A stretch of 23,031 bases of DNA, from positions 1 to 23,031 of the forward strand of contig JBKHHD010000010.1 of NCBI GenBank assembly GCA_046539325.1, read 5' to 3'. Each line of letters begins with the position of its first letter. The first letter of the stretch is position 1. Positions 2,733 through 11,207 of this stretch are shown one piece after another. The position numbers and the translations under genes are program-made. The notes under the pieces are model-generated. The model had not been told where the DNA came from. It did no database searches and was given only the letters and a program-made list of their open reading frames with translations. This DNA is from Candidatus Aenigmatarchaeota archaeon. Its GTDB lineage: Archaea > Aenigmatarchaeota > Aenigmatarchaeia > PWEA01.

Positions 2733-3625
2733 CTTTCAACCCACCATCTAATGAGAGATGCGTTTCCGAACCATGTAGATACGAAATCTATCAAGAGAGC
2801 TATTATTAAAACGGAGGCCACCTCTCTAAGTGCAGCTGCAGTAGTGGCCAAATATAGAATCGTGAGGGCTGATAAAGTCGTGGTCATCATTCCCATGTTT
2901 GTCTTCATTGCCGAAAAAACTCTCTCAGAAACTGTGCCTTTCTTCCTCTTTATAACTCTTGTCACCAGAACCACATCTGAGTCGACGGAATAACCTATAA
3001 CCAAAAGCAGACCTGCGAAGGACGCAAGGGTCATGGGTATCTGGAAGACCTGCATCATGGCAAGTACAACTATCATATCCATGCTAACGGCATAAAGTAT
3101 AGCTACGACCGGAACGAAGTCCCTGAAAACAAACAGTACAACTACTCCCATAAATACAAAGGCACCTATGAGTGCAAGGCGTGACTGCTCCCAAAACCCT
3201 CCTGCGAGGCTCGGATCCACTTCATTGAAGGTATACTCATCGACCTCCATACCGTAGTCGCGTAGTATATTGATTATTTCATCTTCAGTGGAGTCTATAC
3301 GTGTCCTCACCTCTATTCCACGGGACGTTGCCGACACTGATTGCCTCACCTGAGCTTCAACGTCTGCATCCGCAAAATGCCTCTCTAGGTCCCTGGAACT
3401 TATATCCATATCCTCAGGTATCTCCGCTGTAAGCTGATTTCCTCCTTTGAGGGTAAGACCTTTAAGAAACCACTCGCCGGCCTCTTTGTTTCCTCTCTCC
3501 CTCTGCATGTTGAAGTAAAGGAAGCTTGAAGAGGCTATAAGTAGAACTAGCGAAATCGCGAAAAGCATTCTCTTGTCTGCTCCGTCATACCAATCCTGAA
3601 GACCCTTTATCGTACTCTCGAGCAT
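2729..3625 (-). CDS. secF: Protein translocase subunit SecF
   Basis: GLTLKGG and LASFAGLLLVIGYSVDSDVVL motifs; ATGA overlap with secD. Confidence 0.93.
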   Translation of the reverse strand: MLESTIKGLQDWYDGADKRMLFAISLVLLIASSSFLYFNMQRERGNKEAGEWFLKGLTLKGGNQLTAEIPEDMDISSRDLERHFADADVEAQVRQSVSATSRGIEVRTRIDSTEDEIINILRDYGMEVDEYTFNEVDPSLAGGFWEQSRLALIGAFVFMGVVVLFVFRDFVPVVAILYAVSMDMIVVLAMMQVFQIPMTLASFAGLLLVIGYSVDSDVVLVTRVIKRKKGTVSERVFSAMKTNMGMMTTTLSALTILYLATTAAALREVASVLIIALLIDFVSTWFGNASLIRWWVER

Positions 3626-3711
3626 ACTAACCTCTTTTTTAGTTCAATGTTATTAAAAACTATGGAACACAGTTTGTATAAGACTTAATATAAATAAATA
3701 TAGGTGTGCGA
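3626..3711. promoter_or_regulatory. Divergent promoter region (secF / TctA-like)
   Basis: AT-rich gap with TATA-like TTAATATAAATA at about 3685-3696 and TTATTAAAAA at about 3650-3659; AGGTG RBS before ATG 3712. Confidence 0.5.
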
Positions 3712-4893
3712 ATGCTCGAGGTTCTAGCATTCCTGCTTGCTGGTGTCCTCATAGGAATACTCACAGGTCTTATACCCGGTTTTCATCCCAATCTTATAGC
3801 AACGCTTGCGGTTAGCTATGCGTTCTTCTCGCCCCTCAGTTCTTCAGTGCTTCTGGTTTCTGCCGGCGTGACGAACACTTTCGTGAACTTCATACCGGCA
3901 GTTTACCTTGGTGCTCCTTCCGCTTCCACGGCACTTTCCGTTCTTCCAGGCCACAAGCTTCTTCTCAAAGGAAGGGGAAGAGAAGCTATAAGACTTACGG
4001 TTGTTGGTGGTTTAGTCTCGGTATTCCTTGCAACTGCTCTCTTCCCGGTTCTTTACTTCGGACTCGAAACAGCTTACGGGGCACTTGAATCCTACATTCC
4101 CTACCTACTTATTGGTATAATTCTCTACATGGTTTGGAAGGATAGGAGGGTGGATTCGGTATTTTTCTTCTTTCTGTCGGGTCTTCTCGGATATGTGGTT
4201 CTTGAGCACAACTTTATAGGAACTATGCACGACCTTTTTCCGCTTCTGGCTGGCCTTTTTGGTATCCCTATGCTTGTCCATTCGTTCAGAAAGGATCCAA
4301 AAATACCAATGGAAGATAGATCCATAGAACATATAAGCAGTAGGGAAGTCCTGAGAGAAGGAACTTTGGGTTCAATAGCTGGAATAATAGTTGGCTTGCT
4401 ACCAGGAATAGGTTCAGCGCAGGCAACCTACTTAGTAAGAGAGGTCACTGACGAGGACAGTGAAAGAGGGTTCATGCTTGCTATTGGTGGTGTAAACACC
4501 TCCAATATACTTGTCTCAGTTTTCGCAGTATACCTTATAGGGAAAGGAAGGAGCGGTGTAGCTGTTTCAATACAGAACCTCATCCAAAATATAACCTTCA
4601 ATGAAGTAACTGTCCTTGTCCTTACAGGATTAATATCAGCAGGCCTTGCGGCTGCAGCTGCTATATACCTTGCAAGACACAGCCTCCGCCTCTTCAGAAA
4701 CCTCAACTACAGAAAGCTCTGCATGGCTGTTATGGTTTTTATATTCTCTGTTTCAGGCCTGCTGACAGGTCTGAAGGGTCTTGCTGTAGCTGCAGTGGCT
4801 TCATTTATAGGACTTTCCTGCCTACTTTCAGGCTCAAGGAGGAGCTACCTTATGGGCTCCATACTTTTTCCTGTAATCCTGTTCTTTCTGTAG
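3712..4893 (+). CDS. Tripartite tricarboxylate transporter TctA-family (archaeal DUF112) membrane protein
   Basis: Two repeats of the GLIPG/GLLPG motif, FIPAVYLGAP, SVLPGHKLLLKGRG; highly hydrophobic. Start placed at ATG 3712 after AGGTG. Confidence 0.85.
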   Translation: MLEVLAFLLAGVLIGILTGLIPGFHPNLIATLAVSYAFFSPLSSSVLLVSAGVTNTFVNFIPAVYLGAPSASTALSVLPGHKLLLKGRGREAIRLTVVGGLVSVFLATALFPVLYFGLETAYGALESYIPYLLIGIILYMVWKDRRVDSVFFFFLSGLLGYVVLEHNFIGTMHDLFPLLAGLFGIPMLVHSFRKDPKIPMEDRSIEHISSREVLREGTLGSIAGIIVGLLPGIGSAQATYLVREVTDEDSERGFMLAIGGVNTSNILVSVFAVYLIGKGRSGVAVSIQNLIQNITFNEVTVLVLTGLISAGLAAAAAIYLARHSLRLFRNLNYRKLCMAVMVFIFSVSGLLTGLKGLAVAAVASFIGLSCLLSGSRRSYLMGSILFPVILFFL

Positions 4894-4901
4894 TGCCTAA
4901 A
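4889..4901 (+). repeat. Dispersed 14-bp motif, copy 1 (13/14: cTGTAGTGCCTAAA)
   Basis: Contains both the TAG stop of the TctA-like gene (4891-4893) and the opposite-strand TAG stop of the PAP2 gene (4897-4899). Confidence 0.9.
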
Positions 4902-5346
4902 AGTCTTTCAGAAATGAACCGAGCTTTCGGTTTATATAGTCCTTTTTTGAAAGACAAAGGTAGGAAACAAAAAGCGCTATGATGATACTAGCGGCTAAAT
5001 CCACGGGCACGTGAACATTAAAATGGATCCTTGTGTAGGCTACCAAACCTCCGTAGGCTAGAATCAGGGACCTACCCTTCCACGAAGGAAAAAATAAAAG
5101 TGGTGTGAATGCAATGGAGGTATGTCCTGAGGGAAAACGTGGTGTAACAACGTCAATTAAAGCGCCCTCAGGCCTCGGAACATTCAATCCGTACTTCAGT
5201 CCGTAGGTCACAACTAAAACAAAGAAGAGGGAAGATATGTAAGGGTAGAGTTTCTCCCTGTCCCTGTAGTAGAGGTAGAGAGGAACTAGAAAAAAAGCTA
5301 CAAACCTTGCTGTGTATGTTGTAATTAGTAAAAGTCCATCAATCAT
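4897..5346 (-). CDS. PAP2-family phosphatase
   Basis: KYGLNVPRP, FPSGH and TRIHFNVHVPVD match the three PAP2 motifs. Confidence 0.9.
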   Translation of the reverse strand: MIDGLLLITTYTARFVAFFLVPLYLYYRDREKLYPYISSLFFVLVVTYGLKYGLNVPRPEGALIDVVTPRFPSGHTSIAFTPLLFFPSWKGRSLILAYGGLVAYTRIHFNVHVPVDLAASIIIALFVSYLCLSKKDYINRKLGSFLKDF

Positions 5347-8074
5347 CCATATTGACCTTCTTTCCTATTGAGCCGTTGCCTACTATGTAAACGTCTCCAC
5401 CGCAGCTACACCTCCCTTTAAGCGGAACGCGCCTGAAGTCCTTTTTACAGTCCTTGCACTGAAAACCGTTGAGTTCTTCTACAGTAGTATCATCGGGATC
5501 CTTGTTGACGGAAACGTCCCTGTCCCTGTTAACTGTGCTCCCGTTTACAATTTCATCCATGGTGGCCTGTCTTCCGTCGCCTAAAAGCTCCTGTTTATCG
5601 ACACCTATAACGTTGAAAATTCTCTCCAGTGGTGGAAGAAGCTGGGAGTTGATGTAGTAGTCTGTGTCGACCTTCAGATTGTTCTCCCTTATATAGTCTG
5701 GGTCTTCGACACGCTTTGAAATCATCTGGTTACCTTCTATTATAACGTAGGGAATCCTCTGTCCGGGTGTCGGAGCATTCGAAGGATCTCTCTTTTCCAT
5801 TTTCTTCGCAAGCTCTATATGTGGAAGAACTCCATCGTAACTGTCTATCTTCTTGGTTATCGACTTCACGACCTGAAGTTTTTCCAAAGAAACCTCTCTG
5901 TTGGATATTTTTTGTATGATTTCCTTGACGTGGTCTATAGCCTTGTTTATGTCTCCTTCCTTCAGTATTATATCTATAACGTCCTCCATCGTGTCTGAAA
6001 CTATTTCAGGCCAGTCCCTTCTAACGGTTTCTATGCCCTTCATATCTATACCTTCCTCCCAGTCATCCCCGCTCTTTTCAAACTTCCAGCCAGCATATCT
6101 CTTCTTCGTCAAAATCAGGAAGGATCGGTATATCTTCTCAGGCTCAAGTATAAGCCTTCGAGGAAGCTCGTCCGTTATAAACTGGGATATCTCCTGTGAG
6201 ATCTTATGTGCCTCGTCAAGGTTCTTAGTCTCTGCGTCTATCATAACCGAGTCCGTGTCACCATAGACAGTCCTGTAGCCGTACTCGTCCTCGATCATAT
6301 CCCTTGTTTTTTCAATTGTAACTCTGCCCCAAGCAGTTATAGCGTTAGCTATCTCCAGTCGGTACAGCCTCGTTCTGTAGTAGCCTGTGTAGCCGTAGAA
6401 GCTGTTTGTCATTATCTTTATAGCTAGCTGCTTAGCGTCGAGTCTGTTGTACTCCTTTTCATTACCCCCCTCCTTCGCCTTTGCCCTTTCCTTTTTAACC
6501 TCCGTCCTAGCGTCAATAAGATCTTCGACTGTCTTTGCGAGGATTCCTTTTCTAACGTCCCTGTTCACGAAGTAGCCTCCTGTGGGTGATTCATTCACAT
6601 CGTCCTCATCGAGATCGTATTCATCTAAGTCTTCTAAAAGAAGCGTTGTAGGGCAGATATTATAAGTACTCATTATAGACGGGTACAGCGACTTGAAGTC
6701 AAGTACAGCTATGCAGGATTCTGTGTGAAGACCCTTGTCCGGTTCCAGAACAAGTCCACCCTTGAGAGCTTCCTCCTTCCTTCTCTCGTTTCTCCTTTCC
6801 ATTTCCTCGTCTGAAGGCTTTTCCGGGAAGACGAAGTCCCTCTCTCTGAACTCATATAGAAGCATGTTGCTTATACGCTGTGTCTGCCCGCCGAAGCAGT
6901 CACTGAGAACAAGCCTTGAGATCTTCGCTAGCTCAAAGAACTTGTCAAGAAGGCTCTGCTCCAAAAGCAGCCTTAATGCAAGTTCAGCGTCCTTCTCACA
7001 GTAGTCAATAAACCTCTGAAGATCTTCCCCTGAGGAGTTCCATAACTCCTTCATCTCCTCGTACTCTACGTCCTCCTTATTCTCGCCGAGCAGTTCCTCG
7101 GAAACGCTGTCGAGGTCGTACCGCATCATTCTGTGGTATACATCGTTCTTAAGGATCGTATAAGGATCAGCTATCACCCTTCCTGTTATCTTCACGTCCG
7201 TGCTGTTCCCGTATGTATTACAGTAAACGTTTTTCTCGCACCTTCCAAAGTCCTTTCTCAGGTCGTGTTTGTCCAGTCTCTTAACAAGGTAAGAAAGGTC
7301 GAAGTCCTCTACATTGTAACCGGTTATGACGTCCGGATCGTACTCATTTATTATATCAAGGAACTCCTCAAGCATCTCCTCCTCGTTTTCAAAGTGTCTG
7401 CCTGTCGTGCTTCCAGGTTTAGCTACAAGCACCATATTTTTCTGACCCTTATGCTCGGGCGAGAAGGAACATGAGATAAGAACTATAGGGTCCTTGTCCG
7501 CATCGACCATTCGTCCCTCTTCCTGTGCAATACACTCTATGTCGAAGGAAAGGTATTTCAGGTTAGCGTTTTTCCTAGCTTCAATTGGTTCTATGTTTTC
7601 AACCTCTACGGCCTTACAGTTAACTATCTCTGTGTCCACGTACTTACCGTCTACTTCAACCCAGTGCATACCACCTAGATCGTTGTCTATTATGTACCTG
7701 TACTTGAACAGTATGTCTGTCTCGTATAGATTCTTTACAGGACCTTTATCTCTCAAGTACTCCCTCATCTCACGAACCGTGGACGGGTTTCTGAGAACTA
7801 TCTTAAGTATCTTCTTCTTTTCGTCGTCATAGCCTATGGGTGTGTATCTTTCCACTTCCCCTATCTTCTCTACGGCGCCTTCGTACTCATCCTCTATAAG
7901 CTCTAAAATTTCCTCCTTAGAACCGTTGTGGTTTTCCGGCAAACAGTAGAAATAAGGTCTGAAGCTATTGTCAAGGGCGCAGACAGTTTCACCGTCTTCG
8001 GTCTTGCCGAAAAGTCTGACTACAGGCTTGTTGTTAACCATCTTGTAGTCAGCGTCGAGTATCTGCATTTTCAT
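5339..8074 (-). CDS. polB: Family B DNA polymerase with C-terminal Zn finger
   Basis: ExoI FDIE, ExoII YNVEDFDLSYL, ExoIII YCEKDA; polymerase motifs DFKSLYPS, KIMTNSFYGY, YGDTDS, KKRY; C-terminal CKDC...CSC. Likely start ATG 8074 (MKMQILD). Confidence 0.97.
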   Translation of the reverse strand: MKMQILDADYKMVNNKPVVRLFGKTEDGETVCALDNSFRPYFYCLPENHNGSKEEILELIEDEYEGAVEKIGEVERYTPIGYDDEKKKILKIVLRNPSTVREMREYLRDKGPVKNLYETDILFKYRYIIDNDLGGMHWVEVDGKYVDTEIVNCKAVEVENIEPIEARKNANLKYLSFDIECIAQEEGRMVDADKDPIVLISCSFSPEHKGQKNMVLVAKPGSTTGRHFENEEEMLEEFLDIINEYDPDVITGYNVEDFDLSYLVKRLDKHDLRKDFGRCEKNVYCNTYGNSTDVKITGRVIADPYTILKNDVYHRMMRYDLDSVSEELLGENKEDVEYEEMKELWNSSGEDLQRFIDYCEKDAELALRLLLEQSLLDKFFELAKISRLVLSDCFGGQTQRISNMLLYEFRERDFVFPEKPSDEEMERRNERRKEEALKGGLVLEPDKGLHTESCIAVLDFKSLYPSIMSTYNICPTTLLLEDLDEYDLDEDDVNESPTGGYFVNRDVRKGILAKTVEDLIDARTEVKKERAKAKEGGNEKEYNRLDAKQLAIKIMTNSFYGYTGYYRTRLYRLEIANAITAWGRVTIEKTRDMIEDEYGYRTVYGDTDSVMIDAETKNLDEAHKISQEISQFITDELPRRLILEPEKIYRSFLILTKKRYAGWKFEKSGDDWEEGIDMKGIETVRRDWPEIVSDTMEDVIDIILKEGDINKAIDHVKEIIQKISNREVSLEKLQVVKSITKKIDSYDGVLPHIELAKKMEKRDPSNAPTPGQRIPYVIIEGNQMISKRVEDPDYIRENNLKVDTDYYINSQLLPPLERIFNVIGVDKQELLGDGRQATMDEIVNGSTVNRDRDVSVNKDPDDTTVEELNGFQCKDCKKDFRRVPLKGRCSCGGDVYIVGNGSIGKKVNMDD

Positions 8075-8142
8075 ATTATCTTTAACCCACAAACCTTAGT
8101 TGTTTTTCTAAGGTTATATCTCTTAAATTTTTCCTGTTAAAT

Positions 8143-9150
8143 TCAGATCTCAATTTCATCAACTTCCCTCGTCTTAAGGTTTACTAAAAAGGCTGTATCG
8201 TCCGTAGTGGAAAGTAATGTAACACCTTTATAGTTTGTCATAACGCTTTCATTTCCCTTAACGTGAAGTATATCAGGAACCTTCCTTATAAGGTATCTGT
8301 CCTGTAATGAATGCATCTCTAAAGGATCCAGATGTCTCTTCTTCAACAGAGCTACCAGGGCTTCCTTTGTGTCCGCTTCAAGCTCTCTTTCAGCCTTCAC
8401 TAAGGCTTCACCGTCGTGAAGAAGGATATGTAAGTCTCCAAGATCACACCTCACGGGATCTATATCCGAAAGCTCGTCAGGTTCCTCGGAGATATGAACT
8501 GCCTCTTTATCTCCTTTTTGTTCAGAAGCGCAGAAAACATAATCAGGCTCTATATCCCTTAAACGTTCCTTCACGTCATCGTTGACCTCAGAAACAAAGA
8601 GCGCAGTGAACTCCTGATCAAGTGTCGGTACGTTTCTTCTTATAGGAACGTCGGGGTTGACTATCTTACTTGGACTCATTATTACATCTTCATTCACGAT
8701 AACCTCTCCCTTAACCCCAATTACCTCGTCCTCGAGAAACTTCTCGTCTGTCTTAAGGGTAAGCTCCCCCGTCTTATCCTCAATTAAAACATTACCGTCG
8801 TCTACCTTTCTCACCATTCCTATTACGGAGGACTTTCCTGAGGATAGGTTGTTTATAGAGGATATATTTGCGTCGTCCAGCCTGTTTTTAACCTCCTCTT
8901 TGAGAAACTCAAATCTATCGAGGTAGAACTCTGTAAGTTCAGAAACATGTACTTCACCCCCTCCGCCTTCACCGTGATGAACTATCTCTGGCTTAGGGAT
9001 CTTTACTTCTTGGATATCTTTCTTAGTAATAACAAGTCCGCTTGATTCTATTACTCTTTCCATATCTTCAGTTTCCAGACTACCTGCTTCTTCTAAGACT
9101 TCTGGACTTAACAGCTTTCCCTTACTAAGGAAGTCTTCTACTGCGTTCAT
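8143..9150 (-). CDS. PolD small subunit (DP1)-like protein, shortened, nuclease motifs degenerate
   Basis: OB-fold segment SVIGMV...IEDKTG...LEDEVIGVKG, plus KKRHLDP and VPDILH are DP1-like. Metal-binding motifs SDxH, GD, GNHD and GHxH are not recognisable. Start is 9150 (TGATG overlap) or 9159. Confidence 0.8.
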   Translation of the reverse strand: MNAVEDFLSKGKLLSPEVLEEAGSLETEDMERVIESSGLVITKKDIQEVKIPKPEIVHHGEGGGGEVHVSELTEFYLDRFEFLKEEVKNRLDDANISSINNLSSGKSSVIGMVRKVDDGNVLIEDKTGELTLKTDEKFLEDEVIGVKGEVIVNEDVIMSPSKIVNPDVPIRRNVPTLDQEFTALFVSEVNDDVKERLRDIEPDYVFCASEQKGDKEAVHISEEPDELSDIDPVRCDLGDLHILLHDGEALVKAERELEADTKEALVALLKKRHLDPLEMHSLQDRYLIRKVPDILHVKGNESVMTNYKGVTLLSTTDDTAFLVNLKTREVDEIEI

Positions 9151-9296
9151 CAGAACCATTTATTTTCTGTTAAAAAACTTCCAAGGCTTTCTTTGGGAAC
9201 TATGAACTCTTTCATTCCTTCATTTTCCTTCATGAATGAAACCTTTACCTTTGAAATACCTCTGTCTTCCCATTCCTTAAGAACCATCTTTTTCAT
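9150..9296 (-). CDS. Small hypothetical protein, 48 aa (MKKMVLKEWEDRGISKVKVSFMKENEGMKEFIVPKESLGSFLTENKWF); not in the ORF track
   Basis: Translated by hand. Starts 1 nt after the cdc6 stop, and its TGA overlaps the DP1-like ATG (TGATG), filling the gap exactly. Confidence 0.65.
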   Translation of the reverse strand: MKKMVLKEWEDRGISKVKVSFMKENEGMKEFIVPKESLGSFLTENKWF

Positions 9297-9297
9297 T

Positions 9298-10509
9298 TTA
9301 TCCAAAATAATATTTTTCTTTGAGAAGGTTTTTGACCTGGTTTTTCACGTTTGTAGATACTGCAGGCTTTATCATCCTCGTCCTTCCGTAACGTCCCTGT
9401 GAAGTCACCTGGGCCTGAATTATTCCAAGCATGTCAAGCTCAGAAATTAAGTCTGAAACGCGTCTCTGTGTGAGTGGCTCGAGGCCTGAGGTCTTACATA
9501 CCTCTTCGTAGAGTGAATGAACCTCTCCTGTCTGAACCATCTCTTTTCTCTCTTCAAACAAGTTTATTATAGACCAAAGGACGGCCTGTGACTGCCTGGG
9601 CTGGCTTTCAACAACTTCGAGAATCTTGTTCCTATCTATCTCATCTTCAGCCCTGTCGACGTGCTTTGCTTCAACTTTCTTCGCATCTGATCTTTCCGCA
9701 AGCTCTCCAGAAACCCTAAGCAGGTCTATAGCTCTTCTGGCATCGCCATGCTCCTGCGCTGCAAGAGCGGCACATTTCTTCACCACTCCACCCCCAACAA
9801 CATCGTCGTGAAAAGCTTCATCGGCTCTTCCCTGAAGTATATCTTCAAGCTGTTTGGCGTTGTAAGGGCTGAACAGTATCTCTTCCTCAGAAAGGCTTGA
9901 CCTAACTCTAGGATCCAGATCGTTTGTAAAGGAAAGATCGTTGGAGATTCCAACAAGGCTCAGCTTCGAGTTCTCCAACTCTTCGTTAACCCTCGTTAAG
10001 TTATAGAGGAACTCGTCACCTGTCTTCTCAACAAGCGAATCAATTTCATCAAGAATTAAGACAAGAATTCTCTTCTCTTCATCAAGAGCGTCGAAAAATC
10101 TCTCGTAAACCTCATCCGTAGGTAGGCCCGTTGAAGGAACATCCTTGCCGAACTTCCTAGCCAGTTCAGCTATAAGCCTATACTCTGTATCGGCTACTTT
10201 TCTCAGCTTACAGTTGAGGTATACGATCTTAACTTCGGTCCCGTTCTCCTCACTCTTCTCCCTCAGTTTCTCTGTAACCCGTTTTATTACTGCACTCTTT
10301 CCTGTTCCCGTCTTACCGTAAACAAATAAATTTGACGGCTTGTTACCCTTTAAGGAAGGCGCGAGAAGAGAAGCTATAGATCTTATTTCTCTATTCCTGT
10401 GCGGAAGATTTTCAGGATTGTAGTTTGTAGAGAGAAGATCCTTATCGTAGAATAGACTCTCCTTTTCCATGTACTCGTCAAAAATTGTATCCAATGATTG
10501 CTGCTGCAT
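9298..10509 (-). CDS. cdc6: Orc1/Cdc6 replication initiator
   Basis: Walker A GKTGTGKS, Walker B ILDEID, sensor-2 GDARRAIDLLR, winged-helix tail SQGRYGRTR. Start at ATG 10509 after GGGGTG RBS. Confidence 0.97.
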   Translation of the reverse strand: MQQQSLDTIFDEYMEKESLFYDKDLLSTNYNPENLPHRNREIRSIASLLAPSLKGNKPSNLFVYGKTGTGKSAVIKRVTEKLREKSEENGTEVKIVYLNCKLRKVADTEYRLIAELARKFGKDVPSTGLPTDEVYERFFDALDEEKRILVLILDEIDSLVEKTGDEFLYNLTRVNEELENSKLSLVGISNDLSFTNDLDPRVRSSLSEEEILFSPYNAKQLEDILQGRADEAFHDDVVGGGVVKKCAALAAQEHGDARRAIDLLRVSGELAERSDAKKVEAKHVDRAEDEIDRNKILEVVESQPRQSQAVLWSIINLFEERKEMVQTGEVHSLYEEVCKTSGLEPLTQRRVSDLISELDMLGIIQAQVTSQGRYGRTRMIKPAVSTNVKNQVKNLLKEKYYFG

Positions 10510-10573
10510 GTAAACACCCCACTCAATCCCCACACCCCAAAACCGGGGACGTTTTGTTGGTAAAGATAATTTA

Positions 10574-10590
10574 GGTTTTATATAAAAAGC
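10574..10590 (-). promoter_or_regulatory. TATA box of cdc6
   Basis: TTTTATATAAAA at 10576-10587, directly beside the first ORB-like element. Confidence 0.55.
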
Positions 10591-10592
10591 TA

Positions 10593-10899
10593 TTTGCACG
10601 TGAAACGAGGGGGTCCTTAATATGAATACAGAAACCCCTTTATTTCAGGTGGAGAAAGTTTCTACTTGAAATCAGGGGGTATTTCCTTAACGTGGAAAAT
10701 ATTACACCCCTTTATTTCACGTGGAGTATTAAATGAAATTATATGAAGATGAAAAATTTTGAACTCTGAGGCTCTCACACCCTTATTTCATGTGGAAAAT
10801 AATCCTTGTATGTATGTATAAAAACGTATAACAATGTTATAATGAAAGAAAAATCCCACCCACCTCCTGATTTTTACTTTCCAAAAGAAATCGGGGTGT
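10593..10899. promoter_or_regulatory. Archaeal replication origin (oriC) with ORB elements and an AT-rich unwinding region
   Basis: Six 22-bp elements resembling TTCCAnnTGAAAnnnGGGGT: 10593-10614(+), 10634-10655(-), 10659-10680(+), 10706-10727(-), 10777-10798(-), 10878-10899(+). AT-rich stretch at about 10800-10853. Directly upstream of cdc6. Confidence 0.9.
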
Positions 10900-10930
10900 C
10901 AGGACCTTTGTTTTTCTTTAAAGGAAAAAA

Positions 10931-10944
10931 ATGTAGTGCCTAAA
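10931..10944 (+). repeat. Dispersed 14-bp motif, copy 2 (ATGTAGTGCCTAAA)
   Basis: Exact copy; supplies the TAG stop (10940-10942) of the 49-aa ORF; inverted partner of copy 3. Confidence 0.95.
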
Positions 10945-11089
10945 AACTATCAAGTTCTTCTTTCGAGACTTCACCTTTCGGGCCTAAATACTTGAGAACT
11001 TCCTGCCTAATAGAATCCCCTTCTCTCACACTCTTCACGAGATAGAGATACTTATTCCCGTTTATTTCCTTTTCACGTATGAAGGCCAT
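10940..11089 (-). CDS. Small putative DNA-binding protein, 49 aa ([49 protein letters not shown]); not in the ORF track
   Basis: Translated by hand. The pattern FIRxKxINGxxYxYLVxSxRxGxxxRQxxLKYLG resembles the beta-strand N-terminal domain of IS1634-type transposases and small archaeal DNA-binding proteins (recognition only, not searched). TATA-like TTAAATA on the minus strand at 11128-11134. Confidence 0.8.
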
Positions 11090-11096
11090 AGGCTCT

Positions 11097-11110
11097 TTTA
11101 GGCACTACAT
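11097..11110 (-). repeat. Dispersed 14-bp motif, copy 3
   Basis: TTTAGGCACTACAT, exact reverse complement; lies 7 nt upstream of the ATG of the 49-aa ORF. Confidence 0.95.
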
Positions 11111-11134
11111 ACTTTTCAAAGTAAGGGTATTTAA

Positions 11135-11156: not shown

Positions 11157-11193
11157 AAACTTCTTTTTACTACAGAACAGTTCCTGGACAGAG

Positions 11194-11207
11194 TTTAGGC
11201 ACTACAT
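11194..11207 (-). repeat. Dispersed 14-bp motif, copy 4
   Basis: TTTAGGCACTACAT, exact; shares one base with the pyrI TGA stop. Confidence 0.95.

Follow-up and report, generated by a model that had tools for sequence, protein, structure and literature searches.

The stretch of DNA analysed here (the window, 23,031 nucleotides) is contig 10 (JBKHHD010000010.1) of a 715-kb, 10-contig assembly of a Candidatus Aenigmatarchaeota archaeon (GCA_046539325.1) that is scored as 91% complete. Three co-oriented minus-strand genes of the window are considered together (Table 1): cdc6, which encodes an Orc1/Cdc6 initiator; an open reading frame (ORF) for a 338-amino-acid protein that resembles DP1, the small subunit of the archaeal polymerase PolD; and the gene of a family B DNA polymerase (PolB), which ends in a cysteine finger of the kind carried by DP2, the catalytic subunit of PolD. 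A sequence-only reading of the window had proposed that PolB and the DP1-like protein, encoded beside cdc6 and a replication origin, may together be the replicase of this organism.

Table 1 Features of the PolB locus and its surroundings (amino-acid residues refer to the ORFs as listed).
Feature	Position in window	Strand	Basis or remark
Family B DNA polymerase (PolB) ORF	5339..8092	-	917 aa from TTG; exonuclease and polymerase motifs intact
3'-5' exonuclease domain of PolB, residues 122-330	7103..7729	-	Pfam DNA_pol_B_exo1, 4.6e-36
Polymerase domain of PolB, residues 400-829	5606..6895	-	Pfam DNA_pol_B, 3.2e-111
PCNA-interacting protein (PIP)-like motif QATMDEIV, PolB residues 842-849	5546..5569	-	Pattern Qxx[LIM]xx followed by two hydrophobic residues, neither of them aromatic
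Charged, variable linker of 27 residues, PolB residues 850-876	5465..5545	-	Differs in length and sequence across the phylum
DP2 Zn-III-like Cys4 finger (C879, C882, C895, C897) with KxFRRxP loop and 17-residue end	5342..5464	-	DP2 model and profile matches
Inactivated DP1/B-subunit-like protein, 338 aa	8143..9159	-	Alternative start Met4 at 9150, as in 335-aa homologues
N-terminal helical domain of DP1-like protein, residues 1-52	9004..9159	-	Model helices 2-52; aligns with canonical DP1 N termini
Oligonucleotide/oligosaccharide-binding (OB) fold of DP1-like protein, residues 108-168	8656..8838	-	Five model strands at 108-167
Reduced phosphoesterase-fold remnant of DP1-like protein, residues 183-338	8146..8613	-	Without metal ligands
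Orc1/Cdc6 initiator	9298..10599	-	NCBIfam NF001625, 2.6e-157, above cut-off; Pfam Cdc6_C and Cdc6_lid
Origin recognition box (ORB)-like repeats	10597..10797		A 21-nt unit in three direct copies (10634, 10706 and 10777), spaced by 72 and 71

The PolB gene encodes a complete enzyme. The protein is 911 amino acids long in the database, so the ATG at position 8074 is the likely start. The translation contains the usual exonuclease motifs (FDIE, NVEDFD and YCEKD) and polymerase motifs (DFKSLYPS, KIMTNSFYG, YGDTDS and KKRY). Its closest solved structure is the catalytic subunit of human Pol delta (6s1m_A, E = 1.5e-116), with the PolBs of Thermococcales narrowly behind. A 149-amino-acid membrane-protein ORF (4897-5346, minus strand) starts 8 bases ahead of the PolB stop, and this overlap (5339-5346) suggests co-transcription with the polymerase.

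Past the thumb of the polymerase come QATMDEIV, the 27-residue linker, FQCKDCKKDFRRVPLKGRCSCGGDVYI and then 14 residues to the C terminus, exactly as the sequence-only reading had quoted. The last 41 residues (877-917) make up the Cys4 finger tail, in which the DP2-type loop reads K-D-F-R-R-V-P. This tail matches positions 1041-1080 of the 1,125 positions of the NCBIfam DP2 model NF003103 (E = 5.3e-5); in a six-frame search of the whole genome with the same model it scored E = 8.1e-7, the sole other DP2-like signal being a 29-residue match at E = 0.004. An alignment of ten PolB tails (A3) was made into a profile, with which the whole set of PDB sequences was searched at E <= 10; it matched the DP2 subunits of T. 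kodakarensis (E = 1.4e-6) and P. abyssi (E = 3.7e-6), the next match being an unrelated zinc finger at E = 0.05. The DP2 matches cover residues 1121-1164, that is, the Zn-III finger, and align FQC..C...FRRxPLxGxCxCGG of the tails with FRCVKCNTK[FY]RRPPLxGKCxxCGG of DP2; A3 columns C50, C53, R58, R59, P61, G64, C66, C68 and G70 are invariant. By these sequence comparisons, the proposed DP2-type finger is upheld and its likeness to DP2 is specific to Zn-III. The other half of the proposed tail comparison, a likeness to the C-terminal domains (CTDs) found in Pol alpha and in Pol epsilon, was not detectable by sequence: neither Pol alpha nor Pol epsilon chains were among the PDB matches at this threshold, which comprised just DP2 and unrelated fingers. 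The tail is a bare finger rather than a full eukaryote-type CTD. The PIP-like motif stands at the same position in all ten A3 tails and in the PolB tails of all 20 further loci of the phylum described below; all 20 also have the Cys4 pattern and the form Qxx[LIM]xx-hydrophobic-hydrophobic.

The gene directly upstream of PolB encodes the DP1-like protein. No Pfam family, PF04042 (DNA_pol_E_B) included, matched it at E <= 0.1, whereas the NCBIfam DP1 model NF003118 matches residues 59-192 in the OB region (E = 8.8e-22), and in the six-frame search the NCBIfam DP1 models also match its C-terminal stretch. An AlphaFold2 model computed from a 26-sequence alignment has a mean predicted local distance difference test (pLDDT) value of 87.2, and its top Foldseek match in the PDB is DP1 of P. 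abyssi (E = 1.8e-18). The model also matches the B-subunit of human Pol epsilon (7pfo_A, E = 4.2e-16), p50 of human Pol delta (6tny_B, E = 9.9e-16) and further B-subunits (5vbn_A, E = 4.6e-13; 4y97_C, E = 2.7e-10). As modelled, the protein has the DP1/B-subunit fold.

In alignments with canonical DP1, none of the five phosphoesterase motifs of this fold survives. Motif I, SDxH in canonical DP1, reads SEVN; motif II changes from GD to SE; the region of motif III (GNHD) is deleted; the His of motif IV (YHG) is displaced by one column; and motif V changes from GHxH to G-NES. The columns that are invariant between active DP1 and the DP1-like sequences (E127, D128, P169, P235, R275, H276, P279, Y310 and K311) are all non-catalytic. 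Of the attributes of a canonical DP1, the protein has the OB and phosphoesterase folds and lacks the five liganded motifs and, in its genome, a DP2 partner. Fold and alignments alike bear out the proposal that a short DP1-like protein devoid of metallophosphoesterase ligands is encoded upstream of the polymerase. The decay of the DP1-like protein is graded across the phylum, as judged by the motif alignment. Three loci whose PolB has the finger (L031, L033 and L034; DP1-like ORFs 4468-5640 on the minus strand, 2974-4083 on the minus strand and 1720-2940 on the plus strand; proteins P0024-P0026 and P0031) retain motifs I (SDxH), II (GD), IV (His) and V (GHxH), as well as part of motif III (GN.D). 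In lineages of this type the small subunit might, to go by its motifs, still be a nuclease.

PolD was not detected in the genome to which the window belongs. The DP2 N-terminal domain was not found in the assembly, and six-frame searches of it gave no match to PF04042 and no second DP1-like gene at a convincing score, so that neither a separate intact DP1 nor a DP2, for which the sequence-only reading had advised a check, turned up. The genome has one PolB only, together with GINS (Sld5-family) and PCNA genes. Some 1.8 kb separates the PCNA and GINS genes, which share one strand (G000:C1:61751-64182, with GINS at 63865-64182).

The pair is conserved across the Aenigmatarchaeota, the label carried by the named relatives of both proteins. 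In ten loci of the phylum, with PolBs of 41-90% identity, PolB is immediately preceded by the DP1-like gene without exception, cdc6 lies upstream of the pair in six (one locus ends at a contig edge), and the finger is present in all nine readable tails, one tail being masked. Among the 20 further loci, two of which repeat loci of the first ten, PolB immediately follows the DP1-like gene in 14, the two lie no more than 2.2 kb apart in one, and one locus is uninformative; the complete order cdc6, DP1-like gene, PolB is found in 10. A survey covered 151 genomes sampled from the phylum: 146 gave a match to the tail profile and 7, all of a single family (f7), a match to the DP2 catalytic domain, which was detected in none of the seven genomes of the window's own family, its own genome included. 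Outside f7, the tail-profile matches lie mostly in frames of 870-960 amino acids. Within f7, they lie in DP2-sized frames or DP2 fragments and in two frames of about 205 amino acids, and PolB is shorter in all five f7 genomes examined, its frames spanning 762-777 amino acids, with one cut at 500. Some PolB frames of the phylum reach 1300-1730 amino acids, compared with the usual ~900 (L031, 205-4404, and L039, 231-4247, both on the minus strand), and frames of 1317-1730 amino acids also occur in genomes G022, G115 and G118; inteins are probably the cause.

Very probably, the PolB and the DP1-like protein are the cell's replicative DNA polymerase, a two-subunit enzyme of eukaryote-like construction. 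The replicase proposal of the sequence-only reading gains support from the tail, the fold, the ligand loss, the genome in which PolD was not detected and the adjacent cdc6 and ORB-like repeats, each of which came out in its favour. In such an enzyme, the complete family B catalytic subunit would perform synthesis and proofreading, presumably as the sole replicase, and past its thumb would follow a degenerate PCNA-binding motif, QATMDEIV, which presumably contacts PCNA, a flexible linker and a single zinc finger that appears to derive from DP2 Zn-III. In PolD, according to the available text of Raia et al. 2019 (PMC6355029), the KxRRxP loop of Zn-III sits in an acidic groove at the interface of the DP1 OB and phosphoesterase domains, and a 20-residue Zn-III peptide is cited there as binding with nanomolar affinity. 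Because the window's PolB keeps K-D-F-R-R-V-P, we interpret the finger as the element on which the small subunit docks: its basic KxFRRxP loop would lie in the groove of the DP1-like protein between the OB fold and the phosphoesterase remnant, in the manner of DP2 Zn-III in PolD. With its nuclease ligands gone, the DP1-like protein would then act as a non-catalytic B-subunit. Since the N-terminal domain of DP1 binds Gins51 in T. kodakarensis, as stated in the available part of PMC9023282, the N-terminal helical domain that the DP1-like protein has kept probably links the polymerase with GINS/CMG at the replication fork.

A structure prediction for the complex of the PolB tail with the DP1-like protein offers weak support for binding. 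The pair scored 0.51, compared with 0.00 for the best of three controls (the contact list was not returned). Of 157 solved complexes, 116 reached the mark of the method, as did 2 of 215 mismatched pairs, but scores of 0.60 or less came from just 18 of those 157 complexes and from both passing mismatches. The prediction runs share at least 40% of contacts, with a partner pLDDT of at least 47 (linker value 48). Because a complex of DP1 with the DP2 CTD has already been solved, the pass may reflect the predictor's prior exposure to it rather than binding of this pair.

Several points weigh against a two-subunit replicase. Binding of this particular pair is predicted with weak support. The tail is without the helical bundle, which in PolD makes contact with DP1 as well, and has just 17 residues past the finger, so its affinity for the DP1-like protein could differ. 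The Aenigmatarchaeota CTD is likewise described as degenerate and of different predicted structure in the available text of PMC12680538. The PIP-like motif has no aromatic residues, four of the 20 further loci have no DP1-like gene within ~3 kb upstream of PolB, and with an assembly that is 91% complete the absence of PolD falls short of strict proof.

Some of the same observations would fit a finger that is a generic zinc ribbon for contacts with DNA, primase or other partners, with the DP1-like protein working on its own, perhaps as a scaffold associated with GINS. In PolD, too, Zn-III is found close to the nascent duplex, according to the available text of PMC6355029, and the missing helical bundle and the weak complex prediction point the same way. 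We nevertheless regard a generic ribbon as improbable, because DP2 Zn-III supplies the sole significant PDB matches and its RRxP loop is conserved, because the finger occurs together with the DP1-like gene, and next to it, across the phylum, and because yeast two-hybrid binding has been reported for the phylum (PMC12680538, in the part available). An incomplete genome in 10 contigs might also conceal a PolD that was never assembled, leaving PolB as an accessory enzyme as in PolD-bearing archaea. For this to hold, DP2 would have to have escaped detection in a family in which none of seven genomes yielded it and in a phylum in which 144 of 151 sampled genomes did not; the single DP1-like gene of the genome is, moreover, the degenerate one, and where DP2 is kept, in f7, PolB is shorter and the tail profile is confined to DP2-sized frames, fragments and the two short frames. 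An unassembled PolD is thus very unlikely.

We give as little credence to an origin of the pair in an integrated mobile element or virus, outside the chromosomal replisome. Kazlauskas et al. do propose a mobile-element origin for the B6 group of PolBs (PMC7544198, in the part available). However, the pair lies between cdc6 with the origin-like repeats and housekeeping genes, the same position is held in 6 of the 10 and 10 of the 20 loci, and its polymerase is the sole PolB of the genome; two pattern-based scans of viral contigs, one for the tail and one for the DP1-like alignments, both of limited sensitivity, gave no relatives.

A more specific reading of the two-subunit replicase can be put forward only tentatively, and we think it somewhat doubtful as a whole: that this is the most reduced eukaryote-like replicase, in which a ligand-free B-subunit, also shorn of ~100 residues of the phosphoesterase domain, is combined with a catalytic subunit whose tether is no more than a Zn-III ribbon, attached by a flexible linker that follows an internal PIP-like motif, and in which PolB occupies the operon slot of DP2. 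The genes cdc6, DP1 and DP2 are colinear in archaeal loci L021 and L025, and L018 has DP2 nearby on the opposite strand. A PolB in the slot of DP2 within such an operon would suggest that DP2 was replaced in place, with the 3' end of its gene kept. None of four f7 DP2 loci has DP1 or cdc6 adjoining, so the DP2-keeping family lends in-place replacement no support. As other lineages of the phylum keep four of the five DP1 motifs, the phylum may preserve successive stages in the inactivation of a B-subunit.

The surroundings of the pair agree with the proposed position beside cdc6 and an origin, cdc6 and the ORB-like repeats being adjacent. The Orc1/Cdc6 family match begins at residue 31, which places the likely start near 10509. 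The repeats sit in a 600-bp spacer of lower GC content upstream of cdc6; their pattern has three matches in the window, compared with 0.00 expected from 100 shuffles, and inverted partial copies lie at 10597-10614 and 10669-10680. We assume that the 21-nt units resemble the archaeal ORB consensus. A second set of repeats lies between these and pyrI (10924-10945, 11096-11117 and 11184-11207), with TTTAGGCACTACAT in two direct copies and one inverted copy. Scanning the window for Rfam families and tRNA genes gave no hits.

The architecture is already published, as the sequence-only reading had rightly cautioned, and the window is an ordinary member of a known group. According to the available text of Kazlauskas et al. 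2020 (PMC7544198), the PolB group B6-aenigma1 was defined together with an inactive DP1 in DP2-less Aenigmarchaeota; DP2 is missing from most Aenigmarchaeota, and one DP1 group, named 'Aenigma_GB_GCA_002789635-like', is inactive. Table S4 of that paper places a DP1 (3687-4719) directly upstream of a B6 polymerase (4779-7476) on one contig, and its rows labelled B6 include the PolB genes of our loci L008, L014 and L010 (90, 83 and 81% identity to the window PolB). The PolB of L012 (81% identical; PWHK01000017.1:5614-8116) is labelled B4 in the same table, unlike its three B6 sisters, which looks like an artefact of best-hit assignment. The window PolB has the exonuclease and polymerase domains, the single Zn-III-like Cys4 motif, a DP2-less Aenigmatarchaeota host with a DP1 homologue and, on the basis of identity to Table S4 genes, orthology to B6-assigned genes. 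A 2025 paper (PMC12680538), in the part available, likewise describes Aenigmatarchaeota without DP2 and with DP1, whose PolB has a 'degenerate DP2CTD', reports binding of Aenigmatarchaeota DP1 to such a PolB by yeast two-hybrid, and argues that contamination from another lineage accounts for the two-motif 'B6-aenigma2' sequences. A binding experiment of the sort that the sequence-only reading had proposed is therefore in print too. The locus shares with B6-aenigma1 the same family B polymerase, the one Zn-III-like C-terminal metal motif, the inactive DP1 directly upstream and the DP2-less phylum, and differs from it in nothing of substance; the window's lineage has acidic proteins and all five motifs gone, whereas motifs I, II, IV and V are kept in some lineages.

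Compared with archaeal PolD (P. abyssi, 6t8h and 6hms), the pair shares the DP1 fold with its N-terminal, OB and phosphoesterase parts and a Zn-III with the RRxP loop, and cdc6 adjoins DP1 in L018, L021 and L025 as it does at the window locus. The catalytic subunit is of family B, in contrast to the double-psi-barrel DP2 of PolD, the DP1 is without nuclease ligands and the CTD is without the helical bundle. In eukaryotic Pol delta, alpha and epsilon, a family B catalytic subunit is joined to an inactive DP1-derived B-subunit through a C-terminal metal-binding element, as is probable for the present pair, and the modelled small subunit matches p50, p59 and p70 in fold, including a phosphoesterase domain that has lost its ligands. 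The window PolB has one Cys4 motif, however, whereas eukaryotic CTDs bear CysA and CysB on a helical bundle; its tail has no match to the Pol alpha or Pol epsilon CTDs at E <= 10, and the DNA_pol_E_B family misses the window small subunit. The architecture bears on the origin of the eukaryotic replicative polymerases, as a case of a family B enzyme acquiring the tail through which PolD binds DP1. This has been pointed out in the literature before, together with binding data from the phylum, and the window adds only another clean origin-adjacent example and an indication of the extent to which the small subunit can degenerate.

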